A program made the position numbers and the translations under genes. 63,646 nt of DNA from Schmidtea nova (Eukaryota), in the NCBI GenBank assembly GCA_044892505.1, contig CM097882.1, positions 361,522,001 through 361,585,646 of the forward strand. The letters are read 5' to 3'. The notes below the pieces were generated by a model, which did not search any database, was not told the DNA's origin, and worked only from the letters and a program-made list of their open reading frames with translations. This document shows positions 2,050-50,000 of this stretch, piece by piece (position 1 is the first letter of the stretch; each line of letters starts with the position of its first letter).

Positions 2050-3563
2050 AACTTCGAGACTTGTTTGATTATAATAAAACAAGATATTTAATACAAAATT
2101 ATGTTGGGCTGTTGGAATCGAAAATAAATTTTGTTAAAATTCATCAAAAGGTAAATATACACAAAAGGAAACAAATTCAAAATACACGATAAAACATAGG
2201 TAGTAAAATAACACAAAAGATTATAAAATACTAAAGTATAAATAGTAATACTACGAACCACATTCCATAAGCCGGTCGAGATATGATTAAAACGATAGAA
2301 AAGAGGCATCTCGAAAGAGAGCACACAATTTGAGCGCAGGTCGGATTTACACACGAAGGAGCGCACGAGAATTGAATGAAGAAAATCAGTGCTTGTATAG
2401 TTAATACGAAAACATGATTAAAGAATAAATTTGGTATTAGAATAAAGAAAATAATTTATTAAAAAATTATAGAAAAATCCCCATTGAAATATCGTAAAAA
2501 TAACATTGTTGAGAATAAAAATAGATTTGAAATTCAATTTGATTGTTTTAATTAATCAATTAAATCGTCAAAAAATGGATACTATTAAACATTAAATGGA
2601 TTCTATTAAACATTATTTAATAGAATTGAAAATAATTAGTTAGAAAATAAATAAAATAATTTATAAAATTAAATTTACAGAAAGTAAATAAATAATTAAA
2701 TATTAAATTATATAAGTTAAATATTAAAATTAATAGATAAATTAAAGTTTTACATTTTATTTAACAAACAGAATGCGTAAGCGTCGTTTAGAAGTAGTAT
2801 AAATATGCGCTGAAAAATCATAATTAAAGTAGTGTGAGCTAAATCACAATTTCAATCAAAATTCACGGTGAGTGATTCTACCAACCAGCAACAGTCATTG
2901 TATTTGTTCAGTCGAGTTGATCGATTTGTAAGTAAGTTTTATTTTTTGTGTAATGTGTAATTGGATGTTTTCATAATTTTTACTTAATAAACATTTGAGA
3001 TATGATTTTGAATTTACGTGTTAAAGGATTTCCCGTTTTACACTCTGCTCATAAAATAAATAGATGCGCCCTGGTGGTGTAATGCCATCAGGGTGATAGT
3101 CGCACTGCTGGGGATTCTTTGGAATTTAGCGGTTGTGGTGAGAACAAACTAAACTTTATTGACAATTAAATCTTGGGTGATGGGAAAAAGCAAATTAAGC
3201 ACATAATTGTATAGAAAACCAATGGAGGTTAAGATGGGTTATTTGTATGTTTTTGCGAATGCATAAGCGTAGTTCTAGGATAGAATATGGCGATAGAAGG
3301 TTAAGATTTATTCATGTGATAGGACCGTAAGGTAAGTAGATGCGTAAGTCCTTCTATCGGCAGCGGGAACCCGAAAGAGAAAATATAATGATAAGTAGTT
3401 TCGGCAACGAAGCTCACCTACTCACTAGATTCTCTCCACCGTGTACAGTACCAACATAGTCAATTAGGGAATAACTATGGGTATACTAGTGTTTTAGGTT
3501 AAATTTATGATGGGCTATGGGTTGTATTAATCTCTAGTGTCAATAATAATTTTTATACCAACA
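2050..3563 (+). mobile_element. Long LTR-like repeat 'LTR-A', copy 1 (solo; left end approximate)
   Basis: Homologous to 18280-20099, 36141-44119 and 44965-47000. TATA-like gtataaata lies near 2795. Conserved tgcgtaagtccttctatcggcag block. Conserved 3' end ..ccaaca at 3563. Confidence 0.65.
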
Positions 3564-10244: not shown

Positions 10245-10656
10245 ATGGTAAAAAAATGTATTAATTTCAATAACAATTTATGTTTAATGTTAATCTAAAA
10301 TAGTAAATAAACTTTTATATATAGAACAAAGATAAATAAATTGCAATACTAAATTCCGTTATCAATTTATAATAAACCATCAAACTTTAAAAAAGGACTT
10401 TAAAATGCATAACATGACATTTAAGATTTACTTTTATGGTAAATTATCATGAAATATGGAAATTAAATTTATTTAATTATCAGAAATATGTAATTAGAAA
10501 ATTATTAAAAATGAAAGTTTTAGAAAAATTTAAATCGCCATAAGTATTAAATTTATAATTGTTGATAAACAAATAATTTATAAACAAAACGAGTTTATTA
10601 GCTTTTTAAAAATAATTTATATAATAAAATTTAAATAAATTTAAAAAAAATTCAAG

Positions 10657-14340: not shown

Positions 14341-15035
14341 ATTATTTTTATTGAATAAATTTTATGGATTTGTTTATTGATTCTCAATTCAATTGTCAAG
14401 TTTCGAAGGATGATAATCCTAACAATTAACAAGACAGACATGCTTGATTTATTTTTCAGCACAACCTCCACCAACACTGACGAACTTTCTCCAACGGTAC
14501 ACCATTGACATTTCGAAGAATACTTGTCCCTTTTCCTCAAGAATTTTTCACATTTTCCTTCAACTCAAGCTTTGAAATAAAGATTTACCCCTCAAATCTT
14601 TCTTTAGGTAACCGAACAACCAAAAATCACTTGGTGCAAGATCTGAACTGTATGGTCCAACTAGACAAACCCACATTTTACTACTGCTTCCTGTATTCGA
14701 TAAGATGTGTGGGTTGAACCGTTGTCATGGAGCAAATAGAAGCTAATGATCAATATGTTAATAAAAGTAGTAACCAACGATCAAATAATCAAAGAGGAAA
14801 AATTAACAGTCGAAAGCGAAATAATCGAAGAAATGAAAAAAGATAATAGTAGATCAAACTGTCACGGAAACAATTCACAAATTCACAATACAGATGAACA
14901 AGAAAGAGGATAAGAAAAAAATAAGAAAAAAGACTAACAAAGACACAACGGCGACAACCAGTATGAAATAGAAAATAGTACAAACGTTGAAAGAGACAAA
15001 TACACTTAGAAAGCAATTGTTTCAGAAATAAACTA

Positions 15036-15077
15036 TGTATTAAATGCAAAATAAAAGAACATACAAATAAAGTTTGT
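15036..15077 (+). mobile_element. Isolated CCHC zinc knuckle of a decayed gag
   Basis: CIKCKIKEHTNKVC fits C-x2-C-x4-H-x4-C and is followed by a decayed second knuckle (GKDGNLTRDC). Confidence 0.45.
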
Positions 15078-15379
15078 GGAATTCAAGATTTCGGAAAAGA
15101 TGGAAATTTGACAAGAGACTGTTGGACGTATAAGAAACAACAAGAAAATTAAAGTTAAAACGCAAGACTAGAAACGAGAATATGGCAACGAAAACCAACG
15201 AACAGAATCAATACAAACTCTTTGACTTATTACCTTTACTTTCTGACACAATTCATTCCAAACAATCGAAGTCATAAAGTCACCTAAGCATGATATCGGC
15301 TTATTTCCAAACGCCCTTCTAAGCGCAATATCCAACTGTTTTTAAACTGGACTGCCACACTTTCTCCATATGGCCTCTG

Positions 15380-16795
15380 ACATTCCCGTAACCGATGCAC
15401 CTGTATCCCACAACATCTTAATCACTATTCCACAGCATTGAACAAAACTCCACCACCTTCCATCCGTCTTCTTGAACATCATAACATTTCGGTTTTCTGT
15501 GTTCTTCACATTTTATTCAACGACTCCACAGACGAAATGTTTGCCATGGAGCGTATCTCGTTTAAAGGACGTTCTTTGTTATTTCTTCTATGACCTCCTG
15601 TAATCGATCCTATTTCATTTACTTCAGATTCCGACAGGCCATCATTCTCAAGGTCTTCATACGAATACATCAGATTTCCTAAATCATTCTCTTCTTAAAT
15701 ACAGTGAATTTTTCTTGTATTATTACTTCTTAATAGAGAGCAATTATTAAAAAAATGGTCACTTTTACCACATATTAAACAACATTTGCTTAAAGGACAA
15801 TTGTTCCGAATATGACATGATTCACCACAACAGTAACATTGACGGAGTTGTAAGGATCGCAATTCTGGTTCCGGAAACCCTTTCGCTTTGTTGTAAACTC
15901 ATCTTGCAATATGTTTCAAAGAAACCATAGGCCTACTGGGTCTCTCATTAACCAATGAACTTTCTGAACTTCGTCTTCTTTCAGTATAATGTTGCCTATT
16001 GCCACTTTTGTCGTAATTTCATTTTTTACTGACATACTGGTTAGTCTCTGGGACTGATGGTCTCATCGCTGGTTGAACATTCTGCCTTACTGGAATTTTA
16101 TTTCTTGTTACCGATGCATACGACGATTGTTTCCTATTATCTGCAAGTGCAAATATCTCTCTGATGTCTTCTGTATGTAAATTATTTTCAAAGTTTACAT
16201 TCATTTTCTCTATTTCTGTGAAAGATACTTTTGGGTTCATTGCAATTGCATCCTTAACTTTTTCTGAATACATAAGTATTGTTACAATATCCTTGACAAT
16301 CCTGTCTTCAGCTTGATTTGAGGAAAGAACTTCGCGTACTAATTTCCTCACTCTGATTATAAAATTTTCGAACCTTTCGCCCGATCTCTGCCTTATCAGA
16401 CTCATGTCTTCGATATTTTGTAAAAAACTTTTGGATTTTACATATTTTAAAATAAACCAACCTTTTACCTCTTGATCTGAAGCCGGAGTCTTAAGTGTCT
16501 CCTTAAAAGTCATCCATAGCTCTTTTGCATCTCCATGTAATAAAAAATTGAACGCTGCTCCTAAATTGAGCGAATTTATCGTCACAAATTCTTCAATAGA
16601 TTCAAGCCAGTCCTTTGCATTTTCTTCTTTTCCTCCAAAAAACTTCTTTATCACTGGGTAAATCGAATCTTGAATATTCTTTGGCAAAGATTCGACAATT
16701 TTCTGCCCTTGTTGTGATCTCGTAAGAGCTGCGATTTCGGCGTGGTTACCAGTAACATTTCCATTATTAATCATAATATAACACGTTATTTCCAA
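15380..16795 (-). mobile_element. Ty3/Gypsy gag-protease relic
   Basis: 258-aa capsid-like ORF 16019-16795. After a frameshift come two knuckles, CYCCGESCHIRNNC and CLICGKSDHFFNNC, and a protease motif VVDTGASV at about 15390-15415. Confidence 0.8.
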
Positions 16796-18049
16796 AAATA
16801 TATTATATATAAAAACTGCAATATTTAAACAAATATTAATCTAAATATCGTCACTTGGTCAAAGTGAAAATAACCAAATTAGTTTGCATCAAGATGATCC
16901 AAAAATGGAACAAGACAAAAAATGTACCAATATACTTCGAGTCTAAACAAAAAAAACATTTAGCTTCCTAGTGTACTAAAACAAGGAACCACGAGATTAT
17001 AAACAGAAACAAGGAAAAATAATTAAACCAAAGAAACCAAAATTATTGAAATAAATGGGTAACCTTAAGAAAAAAAAGACAAGAACCTGATTGAAGAAAA
17101 TAGGATTAAAGATAAAGAATTGGTTAGTATACTGCGAGTAACTCGAATCAAACAGCTCAAGGTTAATGATAAATCTACGATAAATAAATTAAGAGGTGAA
17201 CTACAAACAGCAGCGCTATTGACATGTTAATCGAAATGGGAAAAACCAGAAAGATAAAGAATCAGCACCAGAAAACAATGTTGAAAAAGAAGAAACTCTC
17301 ACCAAAAACGAGGAGGTGATGGAGTGAAAAGTAAGAAAAAATAAAGCGGAAAAATTGTAAATAATGAAATAAATTCGATGTATTCGTAGCAATATTCATA
17401 GTAGAAACAGATAAAACCCATGAACCAATAATGAGGCGAGTATATGTAATGTATACGTAGTTCAAAAAAATGGATTAATAAATCATCAAAATAATCGATC
17501 GAAAAATTCTTAATAATCGAATATTGAGCCAAAATTCTCAAAAGAAGATCAGTCTAATCAGATTAGAAGACAGATCAACCAAAAAAATCAAAGATTCAAT
17601 AATAGAATCACAAACACAACCATATCATGTTCAATCAACGCGACAAGAATACCCATATAACAGTACGGAAGTCCTCCAAATTCAGAAAGAATACTATAGA
17701 ATCAGAACAAAACTCTGATAAGTAGACATATTCACTCTACCAAAATGGAACCAGAAGAAATAATGTAAACTCTAAATCCTATTGATAAAATAGTTATTAT
17801 TTTATGAATCCAAGTATCCCACGAGGACAATGTAGCTAAAATCTGTACCCAGATAATAATCAACAGTCAACCTATACATTCGAAAATAGAATCAAAAGAC
17901 AAAGAGACAGAAAAACAAAATCCTAACAAGATGAACTGATCGAAACGTTAAAAAACAATATGTATTTGAAATTTATTTGAATTATATATGTAATTGATCG
18001 ATTACCATAAGTAACTGCTTGTTTTTATCTTGAACTTAATTTATCATTC

Positions 18050-18110: not shown

Positions 18111-18279
18111 TTTATTATATGTGTATAGGATATTGTTTTTGTAATAGACTATGACGTTATTGGTCATATATCTAAGTAGATTGCGAGACGCAATTTTAAC
18201 GGGTCTTAGAATAATGTTGGACTGACAGTAACGGAATTTTTTGATTGTTTAAACGCGTAGAAAAATACATATGCATCAC

Positions 18280-20099
18280 CAGAAGTTAATACAAATAATA
18301 CAAAGTAAAGACATAACTAAGAAGATCATTAACCTTCATTAAGTAAAATAATAAACGCAAGAGATTACAAGAACCAATATAGTACACATAAAAATAACAT
18401 TTTATAAGCCTATAAAGGTAGGGTAAATGTTGACAAACATACATCTCAAAAGAGAGCACATTATTTGATTGTAGGTCAAATTTACATACGAAACACCGCA
18501 AGCAAATTGAATGGAGAAAGCTAGTATTAAATACGAAAAAGTATTATCAAAGTATAAAAATAATACTAAAATAAAGAGAATAATTTAGTATAAAATAAAT
18601 AGTAAAAATCCTCATTAAAATCAGAAATATGATAAAATAAATTAAATTAGATTTCGTTGTTTTAATCAATCATTTAATACTCGCTAACGCTCAGGGTGGC
18701 ACGACAATGGACACATACATCGTGTTAGTAAGTAAATGAGAATAAATTAAATATTAACTGTAATTGGTTAATTATAAAATGAATCATTTAAAGTGTAGGT
18801 GTGGATCGAAAATCTAATATTTTCTGAATTTCTCTACGCATAATTCACATTGCGAGTATGAGAAATTCAGCACACCAAACATGAAACCCGACAGCCGAAT
18901 ACGTGGATGTAAACAAAAATTTAGTATAAATTCGACACTGAAATCATTAATTCAATTTCGTTCTTACCAGCCAAGAACACCTATTAAGCATAACTCTACG
19001 CAAATTTTGTGACTGATGCAAAATCAGTGAGTAATTTTTATGTATTTGTAACAGTAATTGTAAGTTCATTTATTTTGGAATAAATATTTTAAGCTGTTTT
19101 TTTTGCTTATCCTTTAATTGTCTATTTTGTGACTCAGATGATTCCTCATTTATGCAAACTGAACTTAGGTTTGAATTAGAGAAGAAACTTCAGTAGCTTG
19201 AAATAGCCATTGAAGTTTCTTTCCTATTTGATGATCTGAGTGTGGCAAGATGGTGGCATAGTTGTCAATTAAAATCAGTTAGGAAAGAAATCTGCAGTGA
19301 TTCGAAAAGAGTCAAGGTAAATTCCTTTCTTTGTAGAGATCATGGCAATGGGTCCTGCTCGCATCCATCGTTAACAGGATCGTACAATATTTTATATTAT
19401 ATACATCAACTTCTTGCGTATTTGGATAAAGGAAACTTTGATAATATTTTTATCCTCGTTGAAAGCCCGAATCCTAAATAGTGTAGTGATTTTAAATTAT
19501 GGGATCCGGAAATGATGTGGGATAAAATAAATCCAGGAAAATTTTGCCAGGAAAAAGATCCCTGAAAATATTTTTTAAAGGTCAACAGAAAGAAAACTTT
19601 TGGGATTTGAACAAAAAATTAAGGACATATCCCTTGTCGTGGGGTTTTTGTTCGGCGGGCATGTCGGAGTGTGTGTGGATTTGTGAGATAAAGCTTGCTG
19701 TCAAATAAAAGATTAGATTATCATTTCAATTAACAGATAACAATTTCAAGTGACAATTTTTATTTTGAATTAAAAATTTTACGCTAGATATTATTATGTG
19801 ATTTTCTAGAAATGTATGCATCGATAATTAGACGAACCTTGAGAGAGTGATTGTGTGCGTAAGACCTTCTATCAACAGCTATCCTATACCCTCTATCCGA
19901 AACGAGAATACAGTGAGATTTAGCTTTGGTAACGAAGCTCGACTGTCTATTGGTTTTCATACCACTGTATACATTACCAACAAAATTAAGAAAGAGTAAT
20001 TATGGGTACACAAGTGAGGTCATCGCCAGGAATCACGAAGGTGCCAAGGTTATTGTAACCGTAGAGACAATGCAATTAAAAACCACATATACGCTCACA
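18280..20099 (+). mobile_element. LTR-A copy 2 (diverged, with internal insertions)
   Basis: catctcaaaagagagcac..atttgattgtaggtcaaatttacatacgaaa block at about 18443-18495; tgcgtaagaccttctatc block at about 19856; end similar to the other copies. Confidence 0.55.
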
Positions 20100-28466: not shown

Positions 28467-30070
28467 CAGTGGCGTTTCCTGGTTGTGCCTTCAAGGTATT
28501 ATGCTTAGGAATTTGAATACCCAAAATAATTAAAATAATAATAATAATTAATTAAGAAAATAATATTAGACAAACTATAATGTTTATGCTGATGAAAATT
28601 CGATTTTAAAAATATTCCAAAACTTTCCGTAATACGTACATCAATCTTTAAATTAAACAAAAACACTTTAACACTATAATCACTCCAAAGTTTACCATCA
28701 TTCTTTAAAAATGAAGTCCGCTCTTCTGGATTATTTCACGAATTTTGAAATCACATCATTGTGAAAGGATTCTTTCGCTTTTAAATCAAATATTAGATTT
28801 TTTGGATAATGTCCATTATCATGTCCATTACCTAGGTGGCAGATAATACCCATAACATTGAATTTAAAATTATTTATTTATAGATCTATTTATTGATTAA
28901 TTTAGAATAAAAACTATGAAAACTTCCAGAATATAGATGTTGCTTTCTGTGAGAAATATGACAGTATCTCAGGTTATTACCATTCTTCGCGCCAAAGAAT
29001 TACTGAAAAGAGCAATGAAATGTTCTTGTTGTGGTGAATTAATGGTAGAAAGAGAAAGAAAAGACAATATTGATGGTGTTTCTTGGGTTTGCTACAGCAA
29101 AGAATGCCCTAAAAAGAAAACCACAACAAGCATAAGAAATGGGTCTTTTTTCTCAGATTTTCGTTTATCACTAGCTGATGTATGGACTTTGGTGTTAATG
29201 TGGACCGAGTCTGTTCAGGTTTGTGATGCCGCCCACAGGTTTGGAATAAACAGGAAGTCTGTGAGTGCAGTATATGCAAAGCTTCGAGGGCTTGCATCGA
29301 AATATTTACTTACAGATCCTATAAGACTTGATGGGCCTGGTATTGTCTGTCAGATTGATGAAAGTCTCTTTTGCCACAAACAAAAGCATAATAGGGGAAG
29401 GGCAGCTGAGACTCAAAGCTGGGTGTTTGGGATAGCTGATACCAGCACAACCCCAGCAAAATATTATGTGGAAGTGGTGCCTGACAAATCTGCGAACACT
29501 CTCTTGCCAATAATTTCTAGAGTATGCCGCTCGGGACCAGTTATTTATAGTGATAAATAGGCAGCATACAAGAGAATAAATCAAAATTTGGGGCTTGTAC
29601 ACGAAACCATTAATCATTTTTTGAATTTTGTTGATCCTGATTCAGGTGTGCATACCCAAAATATAGAATCTCTATGGGCGCAGCTGAAAATGAAAATAAA
29701 GGCCATGAAGGGGATTCGTGGAAATCAACTTCCTCTTTTCTTAAATGAGCTTGTGTGGAAAAATAATGCACAAGCAAATATTTTAATTTATCTTGTTTGT
29801 GTGATGAAAACTCAATAAATCATGATTTGGTTTATTTATGTTTTCATAATTGAATAAAACTAATAGAATTCTTATTTATTATTATTTAGGTGGCAGATAA
29901 TACCCATGTATCTTGTAGGTGGCAAATAATGGACATGATCCGTATTTTCAATAGACATCAAGACTAACCCGTGAATACGTTCTTGTGACATTGTACTACA
30001 AGAATAACTTTTAATTCGTTTCAGTACTGAAAAACTTCGTCCTACCGGGACTGTAGTTGATGGCATTGAC
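28467..30070 (-). mobile_element. hAT (ZMYM1-type) transposase 3' remnant, split by the Merlin insertion
   Basis: cagtggcgt terminus at 28467. PSTTVPVGRSFSVLKRIKSYSCSTMSQERIHGLVLMSIEN lies on one side of Merlin, and DVISKFVK*SRRADFIFK continues on the other side. Confidence 0.7.
28804..29941 (+). mobile_element. Merlin/IS1016 (ISXO2-like) DNA transposon
   Basis: TIR ggataatgtccattat / ataatggacatgatcc. Transposase 28937-29818 with Zn finger CSCCG..WVC, QIDESLF, WVFG and HTQNIESLW; one in-frame TAG at 29558-29560. Confidence 0.9.
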
Positions 30071-33468: not shown

Positions 33469-33955
33469 TTTGTTACGACTTTGCTTCCTCTAAATAATCT
33501 AGTTTGAGTGTCTTTTCCCATTCGTAAAAATGTTTCCATTCTTTAGATTAGAATCCAAAAATCTCACTAAGTCCTTCAATCGGTAGTAGCGACGGGCGGT
33601 GTGTACGAAGGACAGTGACGTAACCAGTGCAAGCTAGTGAATTGCGCTTACTAGGAATTGCTTGTTCATGTGAAATAATTACAATTCAACATTGCTCGAC
33701 TATTTTTAGTTAGAAAATTCGTGGTCCTGTCAATGTAGTGCGAGTGCGGTCCCGGACATCTAAGGGCGTTACAGACCTGTTATTGCTCTTTCATATTGCC
33801 GAACGCTATTTATCCTTCTAAGAAGTGACAATTTACAAAGATTTATATAAATTCACTATTTAGAAAGTCGGAGTCTCGTCCGTTAATGGAATTAACCTGA
33901 CAAATCGCCCCACGAACGGCCACGAACCAACCACCGAATTAGGACAGAGCTATCA
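33469..33955 (-). rRNA. 18S rRNA 3'-terminal fragment (pseudogene)
   Basis: Minus strand reads gatagctc..gatttgtcaggttaattcc..gagcaataacaggtctgt..cccttagatgtcc..gtacacaccgcccgtcgctactaccgattg..aaagtcgtaacaa, with many substitutions and deletions. Confidence 0.9.
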
Positions 33956-33958
33956 GGT

Positions 33959-34176
33959 AATCTTTTACTTTACCGGTCCCAAAATTATTAAGATAATATA
34001 TTATTAATATTATTAATAATATTATTATATTATATTATTTATTATTATTATTATTATATTATTAATATTATTAATTAATATTAATTAATATTATTATTAA
34101 TATTATTATGATATATTATTAATATTAAGAAATTAAGATAATATATTTCTATGTGTGACCGGTAAAGTAAAAGATT
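33959..34176. mobile_element. MITE-like insert with a perfect 20-bp TIR
   Basis: aatcttttactttaccggtc (33959-33978) and gaccggtaaagtaaaagatt (34157-34176) flank a nearly pure A/T interior. Confidence 0.75.
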
Positions 34177-36140: not shown

Positions 36141-36609
36141 TGTTGAGCCCGTACCTTCCTCGCCTTGTTTAAATAAAACGATAATAAAAAAGGTGGCAAA
36201 GTATTCAAAAAGGATTCAAATATGAACCAAAATAATTAAGAATAATTAACGAAAACGACCAAAGTACAAATAAAGTACATAAAATTAGGAATCTAATAAT
36301 AACCCATGCAAAGTGTTGGGCTGATTGAAGAGAGGTTCAATTTTTGTTTAAATACCTCAAAAATTAAATGCATACAAAAAGAGGAGAGCTAAAAGCGCAC
36401 GATAACCTATAAGAGCATTAAACAGATAAATAGCATAAAAGCATACAGGATATTAAAGCATAAATACTTTAATAAGTCAGTCAAGTTAGGGAGAAAACGA
36501 TAAAAAGATGCATCTCAAAAGAGACCATGCAATTTGAGCGCAGGCCAAATTTACATACGAAAGACCACACAAAAATTGAATGGAGGAGATCATTGCTAGT
36601 AAAAAGTAT
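36141..36609 (+). mobile_element. LTR-A copy 3, 5' part
   Basis: Starts TGTTGAG and carries the catctcaaaagaga..aatttgagcgcaggccaaattt block. Breaks off at 36609 and resumes at 41885. Confidence 0.7.
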
Positions 36610-36961
36610 TGGTGGGTTGTTGATCGTCAATATGACCTTGACGTTACCATGGCTCGTATCAACAACTCAACATATAAAACATTGAAATAACCATCTTGTT
36701 GCCCGTCACTAAGTAACGTTGGTAATGCAACAAATGGGTGGGTATTCGCAATCAGTGAGCGTCGTCAATACGAAACTATGATTGACCGAATATCTCCTGG
36801 GTCCAAGGGCTACCGATAGAAGGTTTAATGCCCATTTTGTCCCTTTAAATTAACCGCTCTATCGTTGTGGATTTTCAATACGAGATCTCCATTTGAATAT
36901 TTTCGCTAAACCGTGATTCATTTATAAATCAATTAATTTATTTGATCTCTTTTATTTTTAT

Positions 36962-37615
36962 TTATATCAAACAAACAAATAGAAAAAGCATAATTGAAAA
37001 CTTATAATTGTAACATAAAACAACATTTATTACAGGATCAAATCTAATGTGCGTACTGGTCAAATCAATGTTGAAATCAATGATTTTCGAGGCCTCTACT
37101 ATCAACTGGCCCAGTACTCGCGCTTCTTGGCGACGCTTATTCCTGGCTCTTGCTCCTTTACTGGGCCTCCATCGCTTTGGCTTGGTTGGAGCTGCTGCTG
37201 CTGCGATTTCTTCCTCCACTCTCACCGGGAACAATTCCTGAGGTGGAGGCTGAGATTTCGGTAGTATGGCCGAGATGATGCCACTGTCTACCCTTAGTTT
37301 CTCATTCACGAGCTCCTGTTCTCGCATTGAAACTCGACACGCCCGCAATCTCATTGCGTCTTCGGAGGCTTGTTGAATGAGTAGTTGATTTTGCTTTTTT
37401 AATCGATCTACTGTTTCTTTGACGGACCATGTCGCTTCCATTTCCCGACAGCGGGCCCGAAATTTCTCCATTCGGCTAGTCATCAGCTGGAGTGCGTCCG
37501 CGTTGGACGATCCTTTGGCTTCCAGTTCGACCAAACGGGCGTCGACCTTCTTATTGTGCTTTGCATTTTCGAGCAATAACTTGTGCACTTCCTCAAGCTG
37601 TTGCATTGGATTCAT
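36962..37615 (-). CDS. Orphan coiled-coil protein with a basic (Arg/Lys) C-terminal patch, 217 aa
   Basis: Open ATG-TAA frame, visibly GC-richer than its flanks. Heptad-like N-terminal half, then PKRWRPSKGARARNKRRQEAR. No family recognised; the 3' end may be intronic. Confidence 0.6.
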   Translation of the reverse strand: MNPMQQLEEVHKLLLENAKHNKKVDARLVELEAKGSSNADALQLMTSRMEKFRARCREMEATWSVKETVDRLKKQNQLLIQQASEDAMRLRACRVSMREQELVNEKLRVDSGIISAILPKSQPPPQELFPVRVEEEIAAAAAPTKPKRWRPSKGARARNKRRQEARVLGQLIVEASKIIDFNIDLTSTHIRFDPVINVVLCYNYKFSIMLFLFVCLI

Positions 37616-38639
37616 TGCTAAAAGTATTCAAGCATTTTAATACATATCGAGAATGGTTAATGCACAATAATTACAACATTTATCATCATACGCGAAGATT
37701 TAATTAGTTCATTTGTTATTACAATAAGTTAAGGAGCTCTCACATAATCGATCGCGAGTTTTCCATGGGTATGCCTATCAAGCCTCAATTCGGGAATCGA
37801 AACGAAAGAATCTTTTATCAACACGTATTAGCTCTTTCTTATCTATGTCTAAATGCTTATTTATTTCAGAATTTCGATTTTTTCTTAGACCTTTTCTCTC
37901 ATTAAAATTCTGATGGAAATTCTATGAATCTTATTTTAAAATTTTTAAGAAATTTATCTTTAAATTTTCACCGAGGTATTAGCAACGGTATCAATATAAG
38001 CTACCTAAATATTGAGTAAATTTAATTTAATTATTATCTATTAATTCCCAACATTTTCTATATTTTCAGATTTTAAATTAAATTTCATTTTAATAAATTT
38101 AAATCGGATCAGGATACCCCTGAAAACAACGCTGTTCCCCCGTAAAAAAAGAAAACTATATAAACGAGTAAGCAAAATTCCTTGATTTCTATTGGGTAAT
38201 TTCTATTAAAACAATTTAAAGTTTATATTATAACTATTGATTTTAGATAGTTATTTTTAGGCAGGAGATTTCCCTCAAATCAACTGAATACACTGGTAAT
38301 TTATTCTATTTCGTTTATATAACAATATTTTCAGGACTTAAGCCTCAATATCAAGTTAACGAGTCAAGGGAAATTACCAGGGTAAAGATCTTCCACCAAA
38401 AGATAGCAGATCTCGAAATTTATTGTCTGAAAATTTTATGCAAAAGAAAAATTGAAGAGAATTCGAAATGCAGTTAGCAGAAGTGGTGATAAAATTTCAA
38501 TTCAATCAACAATGTCATTTCGTGGCTTTTCAAAATAAAATTTTTCTTCTATAACTACCTATTTCCTGATTGTGTGAATAAAAAGAAATTTCTCTTTTCC
38601 CTTGCCATAATACGACTTAACCCTTATTAGGAAATTTGG

Positions 38640-39540
38640 ATTACATTATTGAAATATATCTCCGTTCCAAATATTCAAATGAAGCAATCTGTCTCAGACT
38701 CCAGCACCGAGAACTCGATACTCTCCTCTTGGAAAATGGTCTTACACCTTGGTTCCAGAAGATTTTCCACGATCGATAATGGTTGGAATTTATACTTTAT
38801 TGGATCTAATTACAAGAAACTTCTAAAATAAACCATCTCTATTGTTAGTACATTATATTTAGTTTATTCTTATTTTAAGTTGTTATTTAATAAATTTTCT
38901 TAGATTAAGTTTATTCTTATTTCATTTTAAGTTGTTATTTAATAAATTTTTCTCCTTTTTATTTTACTTTTTCTCTCGTAATAGTGCTTGGGATTAGATT
39001 AGTGTATAAGTTTGGCGATTTATAACAACGCGTTTGCTTTAATTTTTAGAAGGATGGTTTGAATGTGGATGATGTGGGCGTTTTGAGTGCAAGTTTGTAG
39101 GTATATATACCCTGTTAGGTCTATTATGGATACCTGTCTGTGTGATCGTATGTGTTTGTGTGTTGATTAGAATGTTGGATGGAAAACGAATGATTTATTG
39201 ACGAGTGAGGTGAGGTAGAATGATTGAGTGTAATATTATTATAGGTTTGGCTGATTTTATTGTTATCGTGTTTGCGTGCGATTTTTAGGATGGGTGACTG
39301 AAAACGATTGAGTGCTTGTGAGTTTGACTGGATGTATGATGCCAACTAACATAACTGTGCAGATTTTCTGTATGGATTGTTTGGGTGTATGTTGCTAATG
39401 ACTGTTATTGAGTGATACGGTGAGGTCTATGTATATAGTAGTTTGAATAGATGTTGCTTGTGATATTAGTATGGATGATGTTATTGAGTGGTATGGGTGT
39501 TGTCACTTGCAAATAGGGTTCTGGGTGATTTTAGGGGGTA
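38640..39540 (-). mobile_element. Highly decayed Penelope-like RT/GIY-YIG remnant
   Basis: C/A-biased minus strand with YIDLTVSLNN, NLHSYVSW..HP and PILKIARKHDN, echoing PLE FLDLTI..YL...S.HP..SQ.LR..RIC motifs. Confidence 0.4.
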
Positions 39541-41119
39541 TTTTATAAATAATATAGACATGATATATAAATTAGTTTCTTTAAATTAAAATAATAATGT
39601 AAATTTTATAATTTCCAAATTAGACTAGTAATAGTAAATTAAAAATTTTTGTAATTTTTCAATTAAAATAATAATAATAAATTTTTATGATTTCTAAATT
39701 AAGATAGTAATAATAAATTTTTATAATTTTTAAATTAATAATAATAATAATAAAATTTTATTATTTCTAAAATAATAATAATAGTTTTTACCATTTCAAA
39801 TCTATGATTATATATCAGCTTAATAAAAATTTTATAGTAAAATTCTCAGCTTGAATTTTTTATATTATAAATATATATATAAAATTTAAGATTTTTTCTT
39901 TAATTTACATTTCTTGGAATTATCATAGGAAATAATATTTTATAACAGTTTTATAATATTTCACAATTACAATTATATTAAAATTTTTCTAATATTGAAG
40001 ATTTGAAGTTTAAATTTTTTGCAATTCTTTTTCTGGATCCTTTCAGTTATTTGATAGAATTTTTTATAAAATCAAATAAATAATTTTTATGCTAAAATCA
40101 AGTACCTAAAACTAAACTTGCCACAAAATGTAAAATTTAAAATTGTCGTAACTAAAATAAGATAAAATTCATATAAAAGATTTAAATTATCTAATAATAT
40201 TCTTCGTCAAAATTTCCCACAGGGTTCGAATTTTTTACCTAAAAATTCATAAAAATCATAATCTTTCCATTAACAATTCGTCGCTCCTTTACCTAGTTCA
40301 TTATTTAATAAATGGTTTTTGATTGAGCTGTTTTATTGTTTTCAGATTCCACACATGATGAATTCTAATAAGACGAAAAAGTATCTGTGAAGGCGAAGGT
40401 GAGTGCGAGTCTATTATATTTAGTAATGTAGTGCCTATTTTAGATCTCAAGACATGAGCTGGATGAATTTATGTTATGTACGAATTGCTTATGTAATGTA
40501 GTATAAATATTCTATTATATTATAATAAAGATCATTAATATAAAAAATCCTTGCTCTTGGCCATACCACGATTCCCCAGTTGGGATGACGTGATTATGGA
40601 TGTATGAGCCTCACCTTAAAGTGGACAAATGGGCTGGCCGATTACCAATCAGACAACGATCCACCCAGGCTACTAACAAATCCGCACAACGCAAGGCTGG
40701 ACGAATCGTCAGAAGATATGGGAATAAAAAAAAATTTATTTTCCGTATATTTATTTATATAAATGCTTAGATGAAATTTTAATTATATTGGGAATTTGTG
40801 AATAATAGTAAGATCAACAAAAAAAAATTTTAAACTGAATTGAATAACATATGAATTAAATATTTTAATAATATCATAATAAAATATTAGCATTACATAA
40901 TCAATAAAAATAAAATAATGAATACCATATCAATTAACAAAGTGCGAGGAATGGGATGATCGTCAGGCATGATGATTGACGATCCCAAACCCCAACAATA
41001 AAAAAAATTAATCCTTACATTCGCCAACTCCGGAAAAGATCTTCGAATTCGCACCAAAATCTTTTTATAGAATAGTCGATTTTATCTTCTTCTTCCTTAA
41101 TTCTTTTCCTAGAAATTCA

Positions 41120-41201
41120 AAATTCTGCTCCAAAGAATTTTCTCCACGGAATAAATTAACAAATTCTACTCCAAAGGATTTTCTCCACGAAATAAATTAA
41201 C
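41120..41201. repeat. Two tandem copies of a 41-bp unit
   Basis: aaattctgctccaaagaattttctccacggaataaattaac followed by aaattctactccaaaggattttctccacgaaataaattaac. Confidence 0.85.
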
Positions 41202-41884
41202 AAGTTCAAAAAAATAACAAATTCTCTGGAAAGTTTTTTAAAAAATTTCTTACAACAAATTCTGATTATTGCCATTTTGATGGCGGTATATATACCATCG
41301 ATTTTGCGTTATCTTCACTAGTGCAGTAAAACAATTTGTTCTAGAATGTTCTTTTTAATTTTTCTAAATTAATTCTAATGATTTTCCGAAAATTAAATCC
41401 ATATTTTGTGTAATAATTTTTTATAAACCACAAATAATTTATTTTAATTCAAAATTTTTATTTTTGAATCGAAATTTGTTCGATTTGATTTAATTTACGA
41501 TATTTCGATCAATATTAGTTCTTTTTATTATTAAATGTGAAATTTTGTGATAAAATCTCAATTTTAATTTTTCTGCACGGATGGTTTATGACAAAATTCT
41601 GTTCTTTATGGACATTTTCAATGGGTTTTCAGCCTATTTCTAACTTTCAAACGTTCTTCCTTTGACGACTTTTAATTTTTCTCGAGGTTTCCATGTAAGG
41701 ACTTGCAGATTCACAGCTAGCGCGTACTCTACTGGTTAATGTGTTTGAGTCCACTTTATCTTTTGGTGTTTCTCGCTTAATCACTTTTGGTTTTTAATGA
41801 AGGTTTGGGTTAAGCTTGAATCTTGCGCGTTCTCTACTTATGGGTTACTGCTTTATTAAAACAATTTGCAGTTTTTGCCCAACA

Positions 41885-44119
41885 GTATGATCATAAAATA
41901 AAATTGGTATTATAATGAAGGTAAAAATTTATTAAAAATTATGTAAGAAATCTCCATTAAAATATCGTAAAAATAACAGAGACTGGGATGAAAATAGAAT
42001 TGAAATTAAATTTGATTGTTTTAATCATTCAATTTATTGGGTTCTGGGGTTGTTGGTGAAGTGGTAAAAGTTACCAAATATCTGACTCCGAAGCGTGCCT
42101 TTAATTGACCCCAATTCACAATTCCAATGACACAAATTTTATTTTATTATTACAATGATTTACACAATCCAAAATATCACGATCAATTCAATACCTCTTT
42201 CGACAATTATACGAGCCTATTACGACACTTCGTGAAATATAGCTCAATTGTAAAATGTCTAGAAAATAACAACTACTAACCACTGACTTGGATTAAATAC
42301 TGGTAATTGGTTTCGATCGTTTCCGCGCGTTGACTTTATTCTTCAGTCAATATTCTTTTGCCTTTTAACTTCTCGTCTGCTTGGCTTCCTTTGTATTTGC
42401 AACACAATTTCTATTTCTGCAACTGATTGAATCAACAAATTTCTTTTTGTATATCAAATTTCTCCTTTCGTATTTTAAACTCGTTTCGTATTTTCCACGT
42501 CAATTTTCAATTTACCTCTGGTTCAGATTTCAATCTTTTTTTTGTCAATTTCAAATTCTCCACTAAATCTTGTCTATCGCAATTTTTCTCTCCCACAACT
42601 TCTGTCGAAAGTTTTGTCTAAAATTCTTTTCTAAAATTCTTTCTAAAATATTCTGACTGCTTCTGCTGTCTCTCTCCTTTTATATCTCGTCAAATTTTAT
42701 GGCACTAGAGATAATTTTGTTTTTTGCATTTTAATTTCCGGCCATCTCGTGTTTCTCCCCAATTGCTGTTTTTTCTATGACAGCTGTATAGATTATTTTG
42801 AATTTCCCTTTTTTTCCTTTTTGAGCCGTCTTTTATCCGCTCTCCTGTTATCTGACAAGCTGTCAGAATTTTATTTTACAATTTGTTTTTGTTTTCGTTT
42901 TGAAAATTCCTTTCGCGTTTTTGTATTTATTAAATAGGAATGACCTTTGTTTTTGATCTCTTGTTTAATCCCTTTTGTTTGTTCCCAACTTCTCATCTTT
43001 CATTTCTTTTTATTTCCGTTTCTTTTTTCGTGTTCCCATTGACCATCTCCTTTGTCATGACGATTTTCCCACAGGTAATTTTATTATTTTTATATTATTT
43101 TGTATTTTAGGTATCCTCAACAAATTGACGCGCGCAAAAAGTTATACATACATTGTTTAATAGAATTAAAAAATAAATATTTAGAAAATAAATAAAATAA
43201 ATTATAAAATATTAAATTTACAGAAAATAAATAAATAACCATTTATTAAAATAATTAATTTAAATATTAAAATAAATATGAATTAAATTTTAAATATTCT
43301 TGTTTAAAGAAACACAATGCGTTGGTGTCACAAAAAACAGTATAAATAGAAGCTGAAATACTATAGCTTTTAACTAGAACTAGAACTAAACTTTAACTTT
43401 AACATTAACTTCTACTTTTGCGGACGAACGTTTTGTTTTTTGATATTCATTCTACCAGCCAGCACCAGTGTCAATTGAATTTGTTCAGTTTTTTTGGAAT
43501 GATACACTTCGTAGTTTTCTATGTTTTATTTTGTTATTAATGTTATATGTTTTTGTAATCATTAAGTTTGATTTTGTAATTAATAATAAATATTTTTATA
43601 TCATAATTTTGTTTGCTCTTGCTCTGTTCAAATAGTTTTTTCCGACTAAACTGATTTCGTAAAGAGATCATGTTAGCTACCAAGTCGCAGATTTCAGAAG
43701 TGTCTGATCTTCATTCTCGCAGAGGTGGAATGTTGAGGCGGCATCACTGAACTTGATTTATATAGATCGACTGGTGTAAAAGAAAACTAAGAAAGTACAG
43801 GGGCTTGTCATCCAGATATTTTTTGGGGGAAATAGATGGAAAAATTCATAAATTTAGAGGATCACTTAGAGTATAAGGTAATGATGTGCGTAAGTCCTTC
43901 TTTCGGCAGCAGGATTCCGAAAGAGAGGACACAATGAGGAGTAGTTTTGTCAACGAATCTCACATGCTCACTGGATTCTCACCACCGTATACATTACTAG
44001 CATAGTTTACCAAGGAGTAACTATGAGTAAACGAGTGAGGTAGTATTAACAATATTCATGATGGTGAGTGGGTTGCCATATACACTGACAATAAAATTTT
44101 AACAGCCCATACACCAACA
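41885..44119 (+). mobile_element. LTR-A copy 3, 3' part (interrupted by solo LTR-B1)
   Basis: Matches copy 1 from about 2420 onward; TATA gtataaata near 43340; tgcgtaagtccttctttcggcag block near 43887; ends catacaccaaca. Confidence 0.7.
42035..43122 (-). mobile_element. Solo LTR 'LTR-B1'
   Basis: TATTGGG...CTCAACA termini, 4-bp TSD AATT, homologous to 46049-46908; TATAAAAG on the minus strand. Confidence 0.75.
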
Positions 44120-44964
44120 CAAGGTAAAAAACAATAATGCAAAATATAATTCAATAAATCGAACCGTGACGGCCAAAAATAGAGAAAATTCATCAAAATT
44201 CATTATGATGCCAAAAAAAGGTGACCAAAAAGAAAAATTAACTAAAAAATGTTCAAAAATTATTTATTTCATTCAATCAAAAATAACAAATTAAAAGGAA
44301 ACGATTAGCTTGCTAAACAAAGAAGGATGGCAAAATGATTGGGTGGCAGTTCCAATTGGCTGACATGCCCCACCCAAGCATAGAAATAAATATATAAGTA
44401 GAGCTCAACAATAACTCGATCGACATATTCTTTGCGACATACTCTCAATCACATATTTTAATCATGTTTTTAAAACTTTACCTTTTGAGGAATCATTGAA
44501 ATTATTTGCAAAGCTTTTGTGATCTGAAGTTTTTTTAAATAAACTTTCAAAAGTCATCACGGAAGAAACATACTAATAATACAAACAATGTCATCAGTTC
44601 TTAACGGAAGAAAATTGGCTCGAATCATCCACCATCTGAGAGAATGAGAACTAGTTCAACTCCCGTTAGATTCAATATGGGACCCTAACGCCAAAGCAGG
44701 GTATTGTCGCATCTACTACGCACCCCAGGCAACTCCATCAGAGTAATTAAGGTTCTGGACCAATATGTAAGAATAATATTTGAACCAATAAAAATTCCAA
44801 AAAAAAGATCTCAATCCTCACCCAATGAAATTATGAGATTATGAAATTTTTAAATTAGTTTAAATAGACAAAGATAAAACTTTCAATTAACTTGCTATGG
44901 TAATCTTAATAACATAGAGGAACTTAACAAAATTTCATTTGCCTTTAAGATAAATTAATAGATC

Positions 44965-47000
44965 TGTTGGTGTATGAGTTGTTAAATTTTGTAGTTGCTA
45001 AGCATTACTGTAACCAACACACTTTTATGAAAATGCTAAATATTATGACTCATGTACCCATAGTTACTCTTTCGTAAATATGTTGGTAATGTACATGGTG
45101 GTATGAAAATTCAATGAACAGGTGAGTTTTGTTGCCAAAACTACTCATTGTATTCTCTCTTACGGGTTCCTACTGCCGATAGAAGGTATTACGCACATGA
45201 TTACTTTCTATTTCACAGGTCCTTACTTATCAAATTATATCTCTCTATAATGTTGCTTTATTCTATCTAGCGTCTACATACTTTTATCCTTCCTTAGCGA
45301 GTACAAAAAGCATCCTACACACAATGATTCTCTCCAAAATTACTGTGGCATTTCTTCTATATTTTCAAAATTTTTGTTAAATATACTAATTATGCTTCGC
45401 AATTTTTGGACAAGGTCTACTTATATTTCTTAATCCGATCTTCTCCATACTTTGATTACTATGTTTCTCCCTATATTTAGAGCTGGGTATGTCCACAAGA
45501 CTTTTGTCAAGAATGTTCCACGTACTTGAGACTCACAAAGTCATTGAGATGCCTCGGAGATTCGGTTTTATTCAATTAAAACCATTTGAATGAGAGTGTC
45601 TGAATACGAAATAAAACAAAATTATACATTCAAAATATTTATTATACATTACAAATGAACCTTTAATTACTAATTACACAAAACATAAAATATACTTGTC
45701 TGTTCCTGTTTACAATTTAACAATAAGAATGTTCCGATACAACAATGTTGGCTGGTTGTATGATTAGAAAAATTCACAACCATTCGTCTGCAAAAGTAAA
45801 TATTAAGTTATGCTTTTAAAACGTCTATCTATACTAAATTTTGAAACGCAAACACATTCTCTCACCAAAATTATGACTAACTAGATTTTAACTGTGCATG
45901 CTTCAATAATTTATTTTACAATTTATTAGATAATATTAATTTTTAATTAACTTTATTTATTTTCCTAACTAATTCTATTTAATTTGCTAAAATGATGTGT
46001 GTGTCCATCGTGTCGTTGTATTAGGTGATATAACGCGTTTATTGATTGTGTTGGGTTATTAGTTGTTGGAGAAATTTAAAATTTGCTAATTAATTCTCTG
46101 ACTTTAAAGCGTGCTTTATCTGATCCACAAAACAACAATTTTCAGATGATATAAACATTTATTGATTATCAGTTGATTACATAATTTACAATTCAACACC
46201 AGAATAGGCAAATATGAGTGAGGAATAGCCCTAATGTATAATACCTAGAATACAACAATCACTGACCACTGATTTAGATTCAATAATTGACAATTGATTT
46301 CGGTTGTTTTCGTGCTTTAACTTGATACTTTATTGACTCTTTTCTAATTCTTGTTTACTTCGTTCACTTGATCTTCTAAATACAAGTTCTCTAATAATGT
46401 AACTCTAATTTATCCAAGCTATAAATTTTTCAAAATCTAAACTTCTCAATCTAATCTTCTGATTCAACTACTGTGGCTTTCCCTTTTATAGTTCGTCATT
46501 TTCTGGCTCTCAAGATAAATTTTATTTTCCCGTTCTTGACTCATGCATACTTCACATTTTTCTCCTAGCTCCCACATTATCTTTGACATTTGTCAAGATA
46601 TGCCGGTTATTCCGTTTTTTTGTCTGTATTCCTGATATCTCTGAAAAGCTGTCAAGATATTATTATTTTTTATTTTTTTTTCAAATTTTGGAATTCCTTT
46701 CTGTTTTTGTACTTGTTAATTATTAATGACTTTTTCTTGCTTTGTATTTTGATTTCTTTTATTTTGTAAATATTTCCTCATTTCTCAATTTTTTACTCTT
46801 CCGTCTTCTTCTCCAAGTTCCAAAGGATCGTTTCATTTACCCCCCCCCCCCCAATTATTTTATTTATTTATGACGTTATTTAATTTTATTATTTAGGTAT
46901 CATCAACAATTGATTAAAACAATCAAATTTAAATTATTTCTATTTTCATTCTTATCTCTGTGATTTTAACGACATTTTAATGGGGATTTTTCCATAAATT
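44965..47000 (-). mobile_element. LTR-A copy 4 (inverted; interrupted by solo LTR-B2)
   Basis: Reverse-complement end tgttggtgtatg at 44965; reverse-complement tgcgtaataccttctatcggcag block near 45175-45197; reverse complement of the aatccccatt..tttgattgttttaat block at 46913-47000. Confidence 0.7.
46049..46908 (-). mobile_element. Solo LTR 'LTR-B2'
   Basis: TGTTGGG...ATCAACA termini, 4-bp TSD ATTG (46045-46048 and 46909-46912). Confidence 0.85.
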
Positions 47001-50000
47001 TTAATAAATTGCACAAATATATCGGATTGCATTGTGTTTTTCTATTTTACGTGATATTTTATTTTCCTACTAAAATTCAGTCTGTGTTACTAATCAATCA
47101 ACTTTTCGTTAAAAAATAAAATAAAAAAATCTCAAGCGCTATGTGAATATGATGTTTGTACCATAGCAGGATCTAATTCTATGGTAACCAAATAACTACT
47201 GTCTGACCAATAGTTACCCGTCGTAAGAAACTTTGGAAATATAACTAATGTGTAAAATACTCGAAAAAAGCGAGCACTGTTACCAAAACTGTAATTGATC
47301 GAATAATGTCTATAGGTTCAGGAGCTGTCAATAGAAGATATGTGTGCATTTCGATGTTCGGTCCCTTTCTTTCACTTTAATGCTTTAACTTTCTATAGTT
47401 TATTTGTACTTCTGTTTTAACCTGAGAAACTGTGAAAATACATATTGATTTGAATGTAACTATTTCGACTTTATCAGTTATAAAAAATAATGTATTAGAT
47501 GCTAATCTAGCTTAATGTTAAATAGTTACCTACAATATTTTCTACTGTTAATTCATTAAATTTCAAAACATTTTATTTATAACGTCATATTCATATTAAA
47601 TTTAGCCTGTAAGTCACATAACGCCTGGAAGCCATTTTAAGCAAGATTTTTACTTGAAGTTCCAAAAATCTGAATTGGAACGTTTGTCCTAATGTACAGA
47701 CTTTTTTTCTTAGTGTGTGAAAGGCTTCTTAAATTGACATTGTTATTATCTTCCTGAAATTTTCATACCAAAAATTATTGATTTTGTAGACGTGTATTCC
47801 TTTTCACACGATGAACAACTAAAATTGTGAACTTGCTATGTATTGTCATCACATCTGTTAAATAAATCTATCCGGACGATCTGCTCTGGTTGATCATCCC
47901 ACATTAGATAGATCAACACTATATAGAAGTTATGCTCTGTTAAACAGATGAGTTTGATTGGTTATTTTTAAAGCATTTTAATGATTTTTCTATATCTTAG
48001 CTATGCCTATGGTTGGTTTGGTAATCGATTATTGTGTTTAATGTTTCATTGATTTACACATTTTGCTTTTAGTCTTATGTTGGTATTAAAATTTTGTTTT
48101 CTTTTAGCTTGGAATATTGATTCCATGTTTTATTGGATGTTTATTCTATTGTATTTCAAAATCTGTTTAAAGCTTTGTTATAATAAAAAGTTTAATTTTA
48201 AGTTATTTTGATTTTTATAAAATTTAACAGATAATAATAAGTTAATAATGTTGAATTTTTCGCACTATTCCTTAGGAATTAAGCTTCTAAAATGATAAGC
48301 GAGCTCTAACTTATTCATAAGATATTATTCCTTTAAAATTCTGAGGACTTGTTACTTCATTTTCTTGGCTATATGATAATTTTGAAATATAATTGCACCT
48401 ATCTTTGCTAATCGCTTCACATGACTTTGTATGGTTTCCATTCTTAATATAATATGTCAATTGTTGGATCAGGATCTTACTATTAGATTGTTTCAACACA
48501 TGTTCTATTTGTTGTAGATCTTGAAGTAATTGCTTCGTTCTCACTTTTACATCTCTATCATATCTTTATCATTCATTGTTGACATAATTTCACAAATTTT
48601 ATAGCCATGCATGTCCTCATATTGAAATATAATGTATAAATTCTGATATTTAGACGAAGAATTAACTAGAACAAAGACAAAATAACTTCCACTTAATGAT
48701 AAAATATTTAATATAAAATTCCTGCCGATAATCCTCTGGTCATTCTCTCACATCGACGTGAGTATGAGGCTAGGTTTGGATATTGCATCAACATCATTGG
48801 GTTAAAGAGTCCACTCTAAACTCATGAACCCACACTGACGTATCTGCATCGCAACAAGCTGAGATACCACCACGAGTTATCGACTTGGAAGGCCAAGAAG
48901 AATAAAATAAAAAGATAAAAATTAATGTTAATGCACCTAGAAAAATGCACGTTTGAAAAATCTTTATTTTCCCATGAAATAGCAGATAATAAATAACCGG
49001 TATATGGATCAGTGCCAAATAAAAATAACTAGGATGAGCAAAGTTTAAAACTGAAATAATTTGTATGCACAGAATGACGCCGTCTCTCCAAAATTTTGAA
49101 CAGCGATGGACCTCAAAAATTCTGTTTCTCAAGTGTAGAGAGTTGTCCTTCTTTTTTAGTAAGCTATTTTCAAAATTTACAGAAAGAACGTTTATTCTTT
49201 GTGAAAGTTTCACAAATCCTCAAAAGAGTGTTACTTTTTTATGAAAATTGCATCTATATTTACACTATTTTCATAGCATTTAATTAAATTGAAGCAGTAA
49301 AACAAATCTTTCTGGAATGCTCTTTCTGCTTAAATTTAATTTTATTTAAAAAGAAATATTTTATTTTTAATAAAATAAATTTATATTTATACATAACATC
49401 TTTATTCTTTACTTTAATAAATTTTATTTTTATCAGAATTTTATATTTTATATAAATTTTAACTACTTTATTTTAATTTTTACGATGTACTTTTACATTT
49501 TTTTTATTTATGCTATGAAAATTAAGACAATTAATTATAAAATCATTGAATTTTTATATTTACCTTATTCTTTAATGAGTTTTTTGTTAATTTTTTTGTT
49601 AGGGTTTTTTCAAGGTTACTTCTTGCTCTTGTTCAATTTAAATTTCACCTTTGTTTTAAGTAGGTAGATGTGCCAGATCTGAACCACTACCCCTGTGTGT
49701 ATATGACATAATCGCTCGGACTTTACATAACAAACATGATCATGTAATCATTACATAATGCTAGAGTTTTACATAGTACATAGGTTATTACGTAACAATT
49801 CTCGGGCTTTTCCTCAACACACGAGCTATGGCATCATAATAGCGTAATCGTGATCAATGGTCAATGTCGTTTCGGGGTCGAGGTCATTGTGTAATCGGAG
49901 TCAAAGGTCAAGGTCATTTTTTTGTTTTATTTTTAAATTTTTGGTGCAATTTTTTAATTTAACCACCGTTTTGTTTAATTAAAGTAAATTAATAAATTTT

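Follow-up and report, generated by a model that had tools for sequence, protein, structure and literature searches.

Tx1-type site-specific long interspersed elements (LINEs) insert into other transposons at a fixed place, by means of a sequence-specific endonuclease and in one orientation. Among long terminal repeat (LTR) retrotransposons, factor-guided targeting with near-nucleotide precision is, as far as the accessible literature goes, established mainly in yeasts and amoebae. The LTRs of the Tf1/2 elements carry a conserved Sap1 site and binding of Sap1 predicts the insertion of Tf1 (PMC5371812). Here, we describe two related elements, B1 and B2, that lie beside the same motif, TTGTTTTAAT, in two copies of another repeat, A, within a stretch of 63,646 nucleotides of Schmidtea nova (GenBank assembly GCA_044892505.1, contig CM097882.1, positions 361,522,001 to 361,585,646 of the forward strand; hereafter the window, in whose numbering all positions are given). 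We tentatively read them as two independent insertions of a Gypsy-type LTR family, each likely a solo LTR, next to the A motif, at a site that is likely favoured though not used exclusively and to which the family was likely guided by a protein. This is the reading we favour, although we put its chance of being correct as a whole at somewhat less than even.

An initial annotation of this DNA had placed both insertion points behind TTGTTTTAAT in oppositely oriented copies of A, with a shift of about 5 bp and with opposite relative orientation of the inserts, and this was borne out in our analysis. The host of B1 (H1) lies on the plus strand and the host of B2 (H2) on the minus strand, and, read in host orientation from the end of TTGTTTTAAT, B2 duplicates positions +1 to +4 (CAAT) and B1 positions +6 to +9 (AATT). 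The two elements are thus found in opposite orientation relative to A, at sites that are 5 bp apart and 1-9 bp from TTGTTTTAAT. Since the duplicated bases differ, the two insertions appear to have the position rather than the letters of the target in common. In the alignment of the four A copies of the window, TTGTTTTAAT is the longest run that is invariant in all copies (10 bp) and it lies within the top-scoring segment of 20 columns (16/20), while quadruples of random segments of the window had a common 10-mer in 2 of 2000 trials. When the two empty A copies (A0 and A18) were aligned alone, the segment with TTGTTTTAAT scored 18/20 and tied for the top rank with two other segments, so the conservation of the motif is not an artefact of picking the B-bearing hosts. 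A 19-mer form of the motif, with up to three mismatches, occurs four times in the window, always within A, and two of these four sites carry B. Both empty copies have the same spacing at the site as the hosts. The location of the site upstream of the TATA box of A, which had also been proposed, was recovered in all four copies with a distance of 216-259 bp between motif and box. A conserved motif that is held at such a distance from the TATA box suggests a protein-binding site, presumably for a protein of the host organism. ARAGORN (0 hits) and an Rfam scan (none) did not detect a tRNA gene next to the site, and targeting of the type known from Ty1 and Ty3, which is directed to tRNA genes, was therefore rejected.

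The coordinates and duplications of B1 and B2 proved to be exactly as annotated, and the two elements are indeed homologous and point in the same direction on the chromosome. Aligned end to end on the same strand, they are identical in 612 of 837 aligned columns (73%), with a global alignment score of 304 compared to -244 for the reverse complement and to maximal control scores of 16 (30 block shuffles) and -8 (52 random segments of the window). B2 has TG..CA termini and shows the pattern TGTNR at both ends; the right end of B1 fits this pattern as well, whereas its left end, TA instead of TG, is one change off. The ends of both elements are of the TGTTG type with an inverted repeat of only 5-6 bp. 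TGTNR ends are a Gypsy pattern (PMC2836005), and 4-bp duplications are made by Gypsy-group elements of Drosophila (PMC3276498). On the minus strand, both elements have a TATA-like box at a corresponding place, at a distance of 439 bp (B1) and 419 bp (B2) from the 5' end, which is followed by AATAAA, and on the plus strand there is none; these signals are pattern matches only, and AATAAA is frequent in such AT-rich DNA. Based on termini, 4-bp duplication and promoter-like signals, B is likely a Gypsy-type solo LTR. The designation as solo LTR in the initial annotation fits these features, but a full-length parent was found neither for A nor for B. In the case of B, scans with the pattern of the ends yielded 0 matches in metagenome contigs and 1 in viral contigs, for which BLAST showed no relation to the window. 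Neither a primer site nor a purine tract was seen beside B, no open reading frame (ORF) in B exceeds 56 aa, and self-BLAST did not connect the remnants of gag, reverse transcriptase (RT) and integrase elsewhere in the window with B or A. B and A show no similarity to each other, and the host motif has one match with two mismatches in B2 and none in B1. A terminal-repeat retrotransposon in miniature (TRIM) has two terminal direct repeats; no direct repeats were detected inside B1 or B2 by self-matching, and this class was rejected for B. Ginger elements have TG..CA ends, 4-bp duplications and terminal inverted repeats of 40-270 bp (PMC2836005). Since the inverted ends of B comprise only 5-6 bp, as do those of A and of a third element, C, described below, Ginger is unlikely for B.

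A single insertion that was later duplicated had been excluded in the initial annotation, and we come to the same result, since orientation, offset and duplication all differ between B1 and B2, which argues for independent insertions, and the two elements are only 73% alike. A cut-and-paste hop is unlikely because the spacing at the respective other offset equals that of the empty copies, with no excision footprint. An assembly error is improbable as well, given that either insert is flanked by a duplication of its own and that B1 and B2 differ too much to be mistaken for one another. We thus regard all three alternatives, shared descent, a local hop and misassembly, as unlikely. For the assembly, contigs of four runs (at most three samples from one study), of which run X1 may be the source of the assembly, were aligned to positions 41400-47500 at 80% likeness; what is said below about listed contigs refers to the alignment tables, which list 15 joints (734 in total), 12 between-letter rows (240 in total), 24 loose ends (8074 in total) and 32 pieces (56058 in total). 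Each of the four runs has contigs that join across B1 and contigs that join across B2. Six of the listed joints are empty-site joints across B1 or B2 and represent empty paralogues, and the listed contigs of the empty form have the length expected without the duplication, which confirms both 4-bp duplications. X1 contigs with 0 differences and single-copy depth (38-41) cover positions 43458-43897 and 44037-46100, and the left junction of B2 is crossed by an X1 contig that extends 52 bases past it with 0 differences. Among the listed pieces, one of the four junctions is bridged and no contig spans the whole stretch.

The host repeat A is 1.4-1.9 kb long, has the ends TGTTGG..CCAACA and a TATA-like box, and its four copies are mutually 54-69% identical. 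These termini are present in H1 and A0. From its sequence, A is plausibly a solo LTR of Gypsy-type look as well, but this assignment is less secure than that of B because the flanks agree in 3 of 4 positions in H1 but disagree in A0 and A18. No parent of A was found, with 0 matches to its conserved block in viral contigs and 0 in metagenome contigs. The initial annotation had correctly recognized the host of B1 as a copy of A; this copy is, however, larger than the local match, as it starts at 36314 and is split by element C. The A fragment at 36314-36609 and the host of B1 form one copy, and its length without C and B1, 1435 bp, is close to the 1462 bp of an empty copy. The 5' end of H2 was sought and not found. 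The likeness of H2 to the other A copies ends at 47010, where a different repeat follows (47010-47500); this repeat, whose ends were not found, may be yet another element that inserted into the upstream region of H2. The two B-bearing copies lie tail to tail, 845 bp apart (44120-44964), with near-single-copy DNA in between. Near its 3' end, A contains a conserved block with a predicted RNA structure, in whose consensus fold 8 of 44 pairs are changed on both sides, a count that was reached in 0 of 500 shuffles, the structure being derived from the same four sequences that were used for counting. The block has a hairpin with a GNRA-type loop in three of the four copies, single-sequence z-scores on the A strand of 0.10, -1.54, -2.19 and -0.05, and no match in Rfam.

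Element C interrupts H1 at a point 146 bp upstream of where B1 is inserted. No terminal direct repeats were found in C, and its ORF of 217 aa (36962-37627, minus strand) has no significant match in Pfam (best E 0.013) and no Atlas match above 0.87. In run X3, the sequence into which 80 contigs continue from the right end of C is varied (agreement 0.43), which shows that C is present at many other sites. The depth at this end is very high, and a short terminal hairpin (36610-36672) was seen by eye. Element C may be a giant solo LTR.

Table 1 Positions of elements B and C, repeat A and associated signals in the window.
Feature	Position	Strand	Remarks
Motif TTGTTTTAAT beside B1 site in H1	42016..42025	+	
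Motif TTGTTTTAAT beside B2 site in H2	46913..46922	-	
Element B1, likely solo LTR	42035..43122	-	1088 bp; promoter-like signals on minus strand; longest ATG ORF 56 aa
B1 duplication AATT	42031-42034 and 43123-43126		
B1 TATA-like box; AATAAA	starts 42684; 42340	-	
Element B2, likely solo LTR	46049..46908	-	860 bp; related subfamily
B2 duplication ATTG	46045-46048 and 46909-46912		
B2 TATA-like box; AATAAA	starts 46490; 46334	-	
Host H1, whole A copy	36314..44119	+	TGTTGG..CCAACA; flanks AAAG/CAAG; 1435 bp without inserts C and B1
H1 TATA-like box	43341..43347	+	224 bp downstream of motif, B1 left out
Host H2, A copy with B2	44965..47010	-	3' end 44965; 5' part traced to 47010
A0, uninterrupted A copy	2102..3563	+	site empty; motif 2543-2552
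A18, uninterrupted diverged A copy	18215..20099	+	site empty; motif 18657-18666; right end approximate
A conserved 3' block (H1)	43878-44046	+	predicted RNA structure
A conserved 3' block (A0)	3335-3500	+	predicted RNA structure
A conserved 3' block (A18)	19848-20020	+	predicted RNA structure
A conserved 3' block (H2)	45040-45205	-	predicted RNA structure
Element C	36610..41884	.	5275 bp; TG..CA ends; duplication GTAT; inserted in H1

Besides many repeats, the AT-rich and animal-like DNA of the window contains a SET-domain gene, an XPF gene and exons of tektin. The best match of XPF is 44% identical, so that this search revealed no close relative, and the named matches near the top are from animals. 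On the minus strand, 5724-10277 holds an uninterrupted frame of 1517 codons with PHD-, FYR- and SET-like domains at its end, which we take, by eye, to be KMT2-like. Two degenerate pieces of 18S rRNA (Rfam RF01960) lie beside the XPF exons at 33470-33979 on the minus strand and are followed by a very AT-rich tract up to about 34600. Decayed remains of retroelements without a link to A or B are located within 12100-16840, namely an RT-like piece (12728-13024, plus strand) and a gag-like frame of 273 codons (16019-16840, minus strand), both weak in Pfam. A remnant of an ISXO2/IS1595-type transposase, interrupted by a stop codon, is found at 28937-29818 on the plus strand.

How often two B insertions would meet at this site by chance can be estimated from the window, where A occupies 10.8% of the available sequence. 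If one B insertion lies in A, the probability that a second one hits one of the other three A copies no more than 5 bp away from the homologous position is 5.9e-4, or 1.7e-3 if only AT-rich sites are considered, and the joint probability of both insertions is 6.4e-5; all these figures are post hoc, as the double insertion was picked from a very large scan. A coincidence, in which an abundant B lands in AT-rich non-genic DNA, A is abundant there and a chance near-match is then picked, would fit with this share of A and with both repeats being high-copy, with the insertion of a third element in A, with the fact that a p of about 1e-3 recurs in a scan of many windows, and with the lack of any further class of A-B junction, at another offset or in another orientation, among the listed joints. 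The joint probability and the match of the site to the top-conserved motif of its host make coincidence less likely, and we consider it distinctly improbable. A genuine hotspot might also arise from the DNA itself, if the integrase of B prefers a short AT-rich, palindromic or bendable target for which the consensus of A happens to offer good matches here; no tethering protein would then take part. The target of B1 is a perfect 8-bp palindrome, TCAATTGA, and a weak hairpin of -2.7 to -4.6 kcal/mol is possible at the site in three of the four A copies; a mirror-symmetric insertion about this hairpin was rejected, as B1 and B2 occupy one and the same arm of it. In keeping with an intrinsic preference, target motifs of LTR elements in Drosophila are palindromic and AT-rich (PMC3276498), and human MER1 is found in both orientations at the MIR3 hotspots 154 and 160, with hotspots also described for MaLR (PMC2836564). 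The target of B2, however, is not palindromic around its duplication, the two targets are alike in little beyond their AT-richness, and the best conservation of the site within A would be left unexplained, for which reasons we hold an intrinsic preference to be a serious but rather unlikely explanation.

A further question is whether B is a dedicated parasite of A, with an integrase that homes to the A motif and with most B copies residing there. Both B copies of the window (2/2) are at the A site, A subfamilies that are only 54-69% alike would be undercounted by reads at 80% likeness, and B ends are absent from the listed loose ends while the C end is present, which is a weak hint for a restriction of B to A. 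On the other hand, the depth of the B ends exceeds that of adjacent A by 2.9-49 fold in all 24 run-by-position ratios, and empty copies contribute to the A depth; in these ratios, summed contig depth does not equal copy number and A subfamilies less than 80% alike are uncounted. Empty A sites are, moreover, present in all four runs. Thus, B is probably not confined to A, and most of its copies are probably elsewhere or in A subfamilies less than 80% alike. Together with the nearby insertion of C, this weakens the earlier proposal of a retroelement that specifically parasitises A, and we find it very improbable. Still less credit, hardly any, is given to the combined possibility that B is a non-autonomous Ginger-like DNA transposon, that one insertion was copied and then inverted or hopped, or that the region is misassembled. 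Ginger shares the TG..CA ends and 4-bp duplications (PMC2836005), the divergence of the hosts (65%) and of the inserts (73%) is similar in size, and the stretch is bridged by the listed contigs only to the extent given above; the short inverted ends, the unaltered spacing at the other site without a footprint, the intact duplication of each insert and the difference-free contigs stand against the respective parts of it. As to the targeting of another element's LTR, which had been proposed as well, the location of the site at the best-conserved motif of the host supports a site preference, but exclusivity is at odds with the depth of B and the empty A sites.

The preferred, protein-guided site has to be weighed against several points in addition to the depth of B, the likely location of most of its copies and the missing further junctions. 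There are only two events, and these were singled out in hindsight from a very large scan; no binding protein, integrase or parent element was identified, nor a coding sequence linked to B. Element C is inserted 146 bp off and not beside the motif, which may mean that the AT-rich region as a whole is receptive; only one of the two B targets is palindromic; and nested elements in plants are not commonly aimed at LTRs (PMC6911290). What goes beyond the observed homology, 4-bp duplications, opposite orientation, 5-bp offset and motif conservation is our interpretation, according to which the favoured course of events would be as follows. An integrase would have made the insertions of B1 and B2, and recombination between two LTRs would later have removed the internal part of B. 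The motif TTGTTTTAAT would bind a host protein that serves the promoter of A itself, and this protein, or open or bent DNA beside it, might position the integration complex of B, by analogy to Tf1 and Sap1. Being two-fold symmetric, such a complex could insert within a few bases, on the side facing the TATA box and in either orientation. B would gain a harmless landing site, and the upstream region of A would be broken. A more far-reaching version is speculative and appears improbable to us. In it, the integrase of B would be tethered by a transcription factor on which another LTR family relies, and B would home to the conserved enhancer motif of that family, insert in either orientation no more than one helical turn away from it, and thereby disable the promoter of a competitor while using it as a safe harbour.

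If B indeed lands beside a defined motif of 10-20 bp of another LTR family, this would provide a testable motif and a candidate for a tethering protein, and it would exemplify how mobile elements compete with each other. Nested hotspots in target repeats are already known, and B would be one more if the preference is weak. In a literature search largely confined to papers available without subscription, we found no report of an animal LTR family that targets the LTR motif of another family. Compared to Tx1-type LINEs, B likewise uses a fixed place in another element, but it has integrase-type ends and is found in both orientations. Gypsy-group elements of Drosophila also have 4-bp duplications and AT-rich targets, but their preference for ATAT/TATA concerns the duplication itself, whereas the two duplications of B differ from these and from each other (PMC3276498). 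Human nested insertions, like those of B, cluster at fixed positions of the target repeat, as seen for MER1 at MIR3 154/160 in both orientations and for the MaLR hotspots; they are, however, based on large counts and ascribed to sequence motifs, in contrast to the two events of B at the most conserved motif of its host (PMC2836564). Nested LTR retrotransposons of plants resemble B in that LTR elements reside in LTR elements, similar pairs occur in both orientations and palindromes are weakly preferred, but LTRs are not commonly targeted and similar pairs are at least 50 bp apart compared to 5 bp for B (PMC6911290). The 5-bp precision of B inside an LTR-like host is therefore unusual. Tf1/Tf2 with Sap1 in Schizosaccharomyces pombe are of the Ty3/Gypsy type, as B likely is, and are guided to DNA upstream of promoters by a host DNA-binding factor whose conserved site is also present in LTRs; for these elements, both the factor and its contact to the integrase have been identified and host promoters account for most of the targets (PMC5371812), whereas the site of B, with a putative factor, is located in the LTR-like repeat of another family and in an animal.

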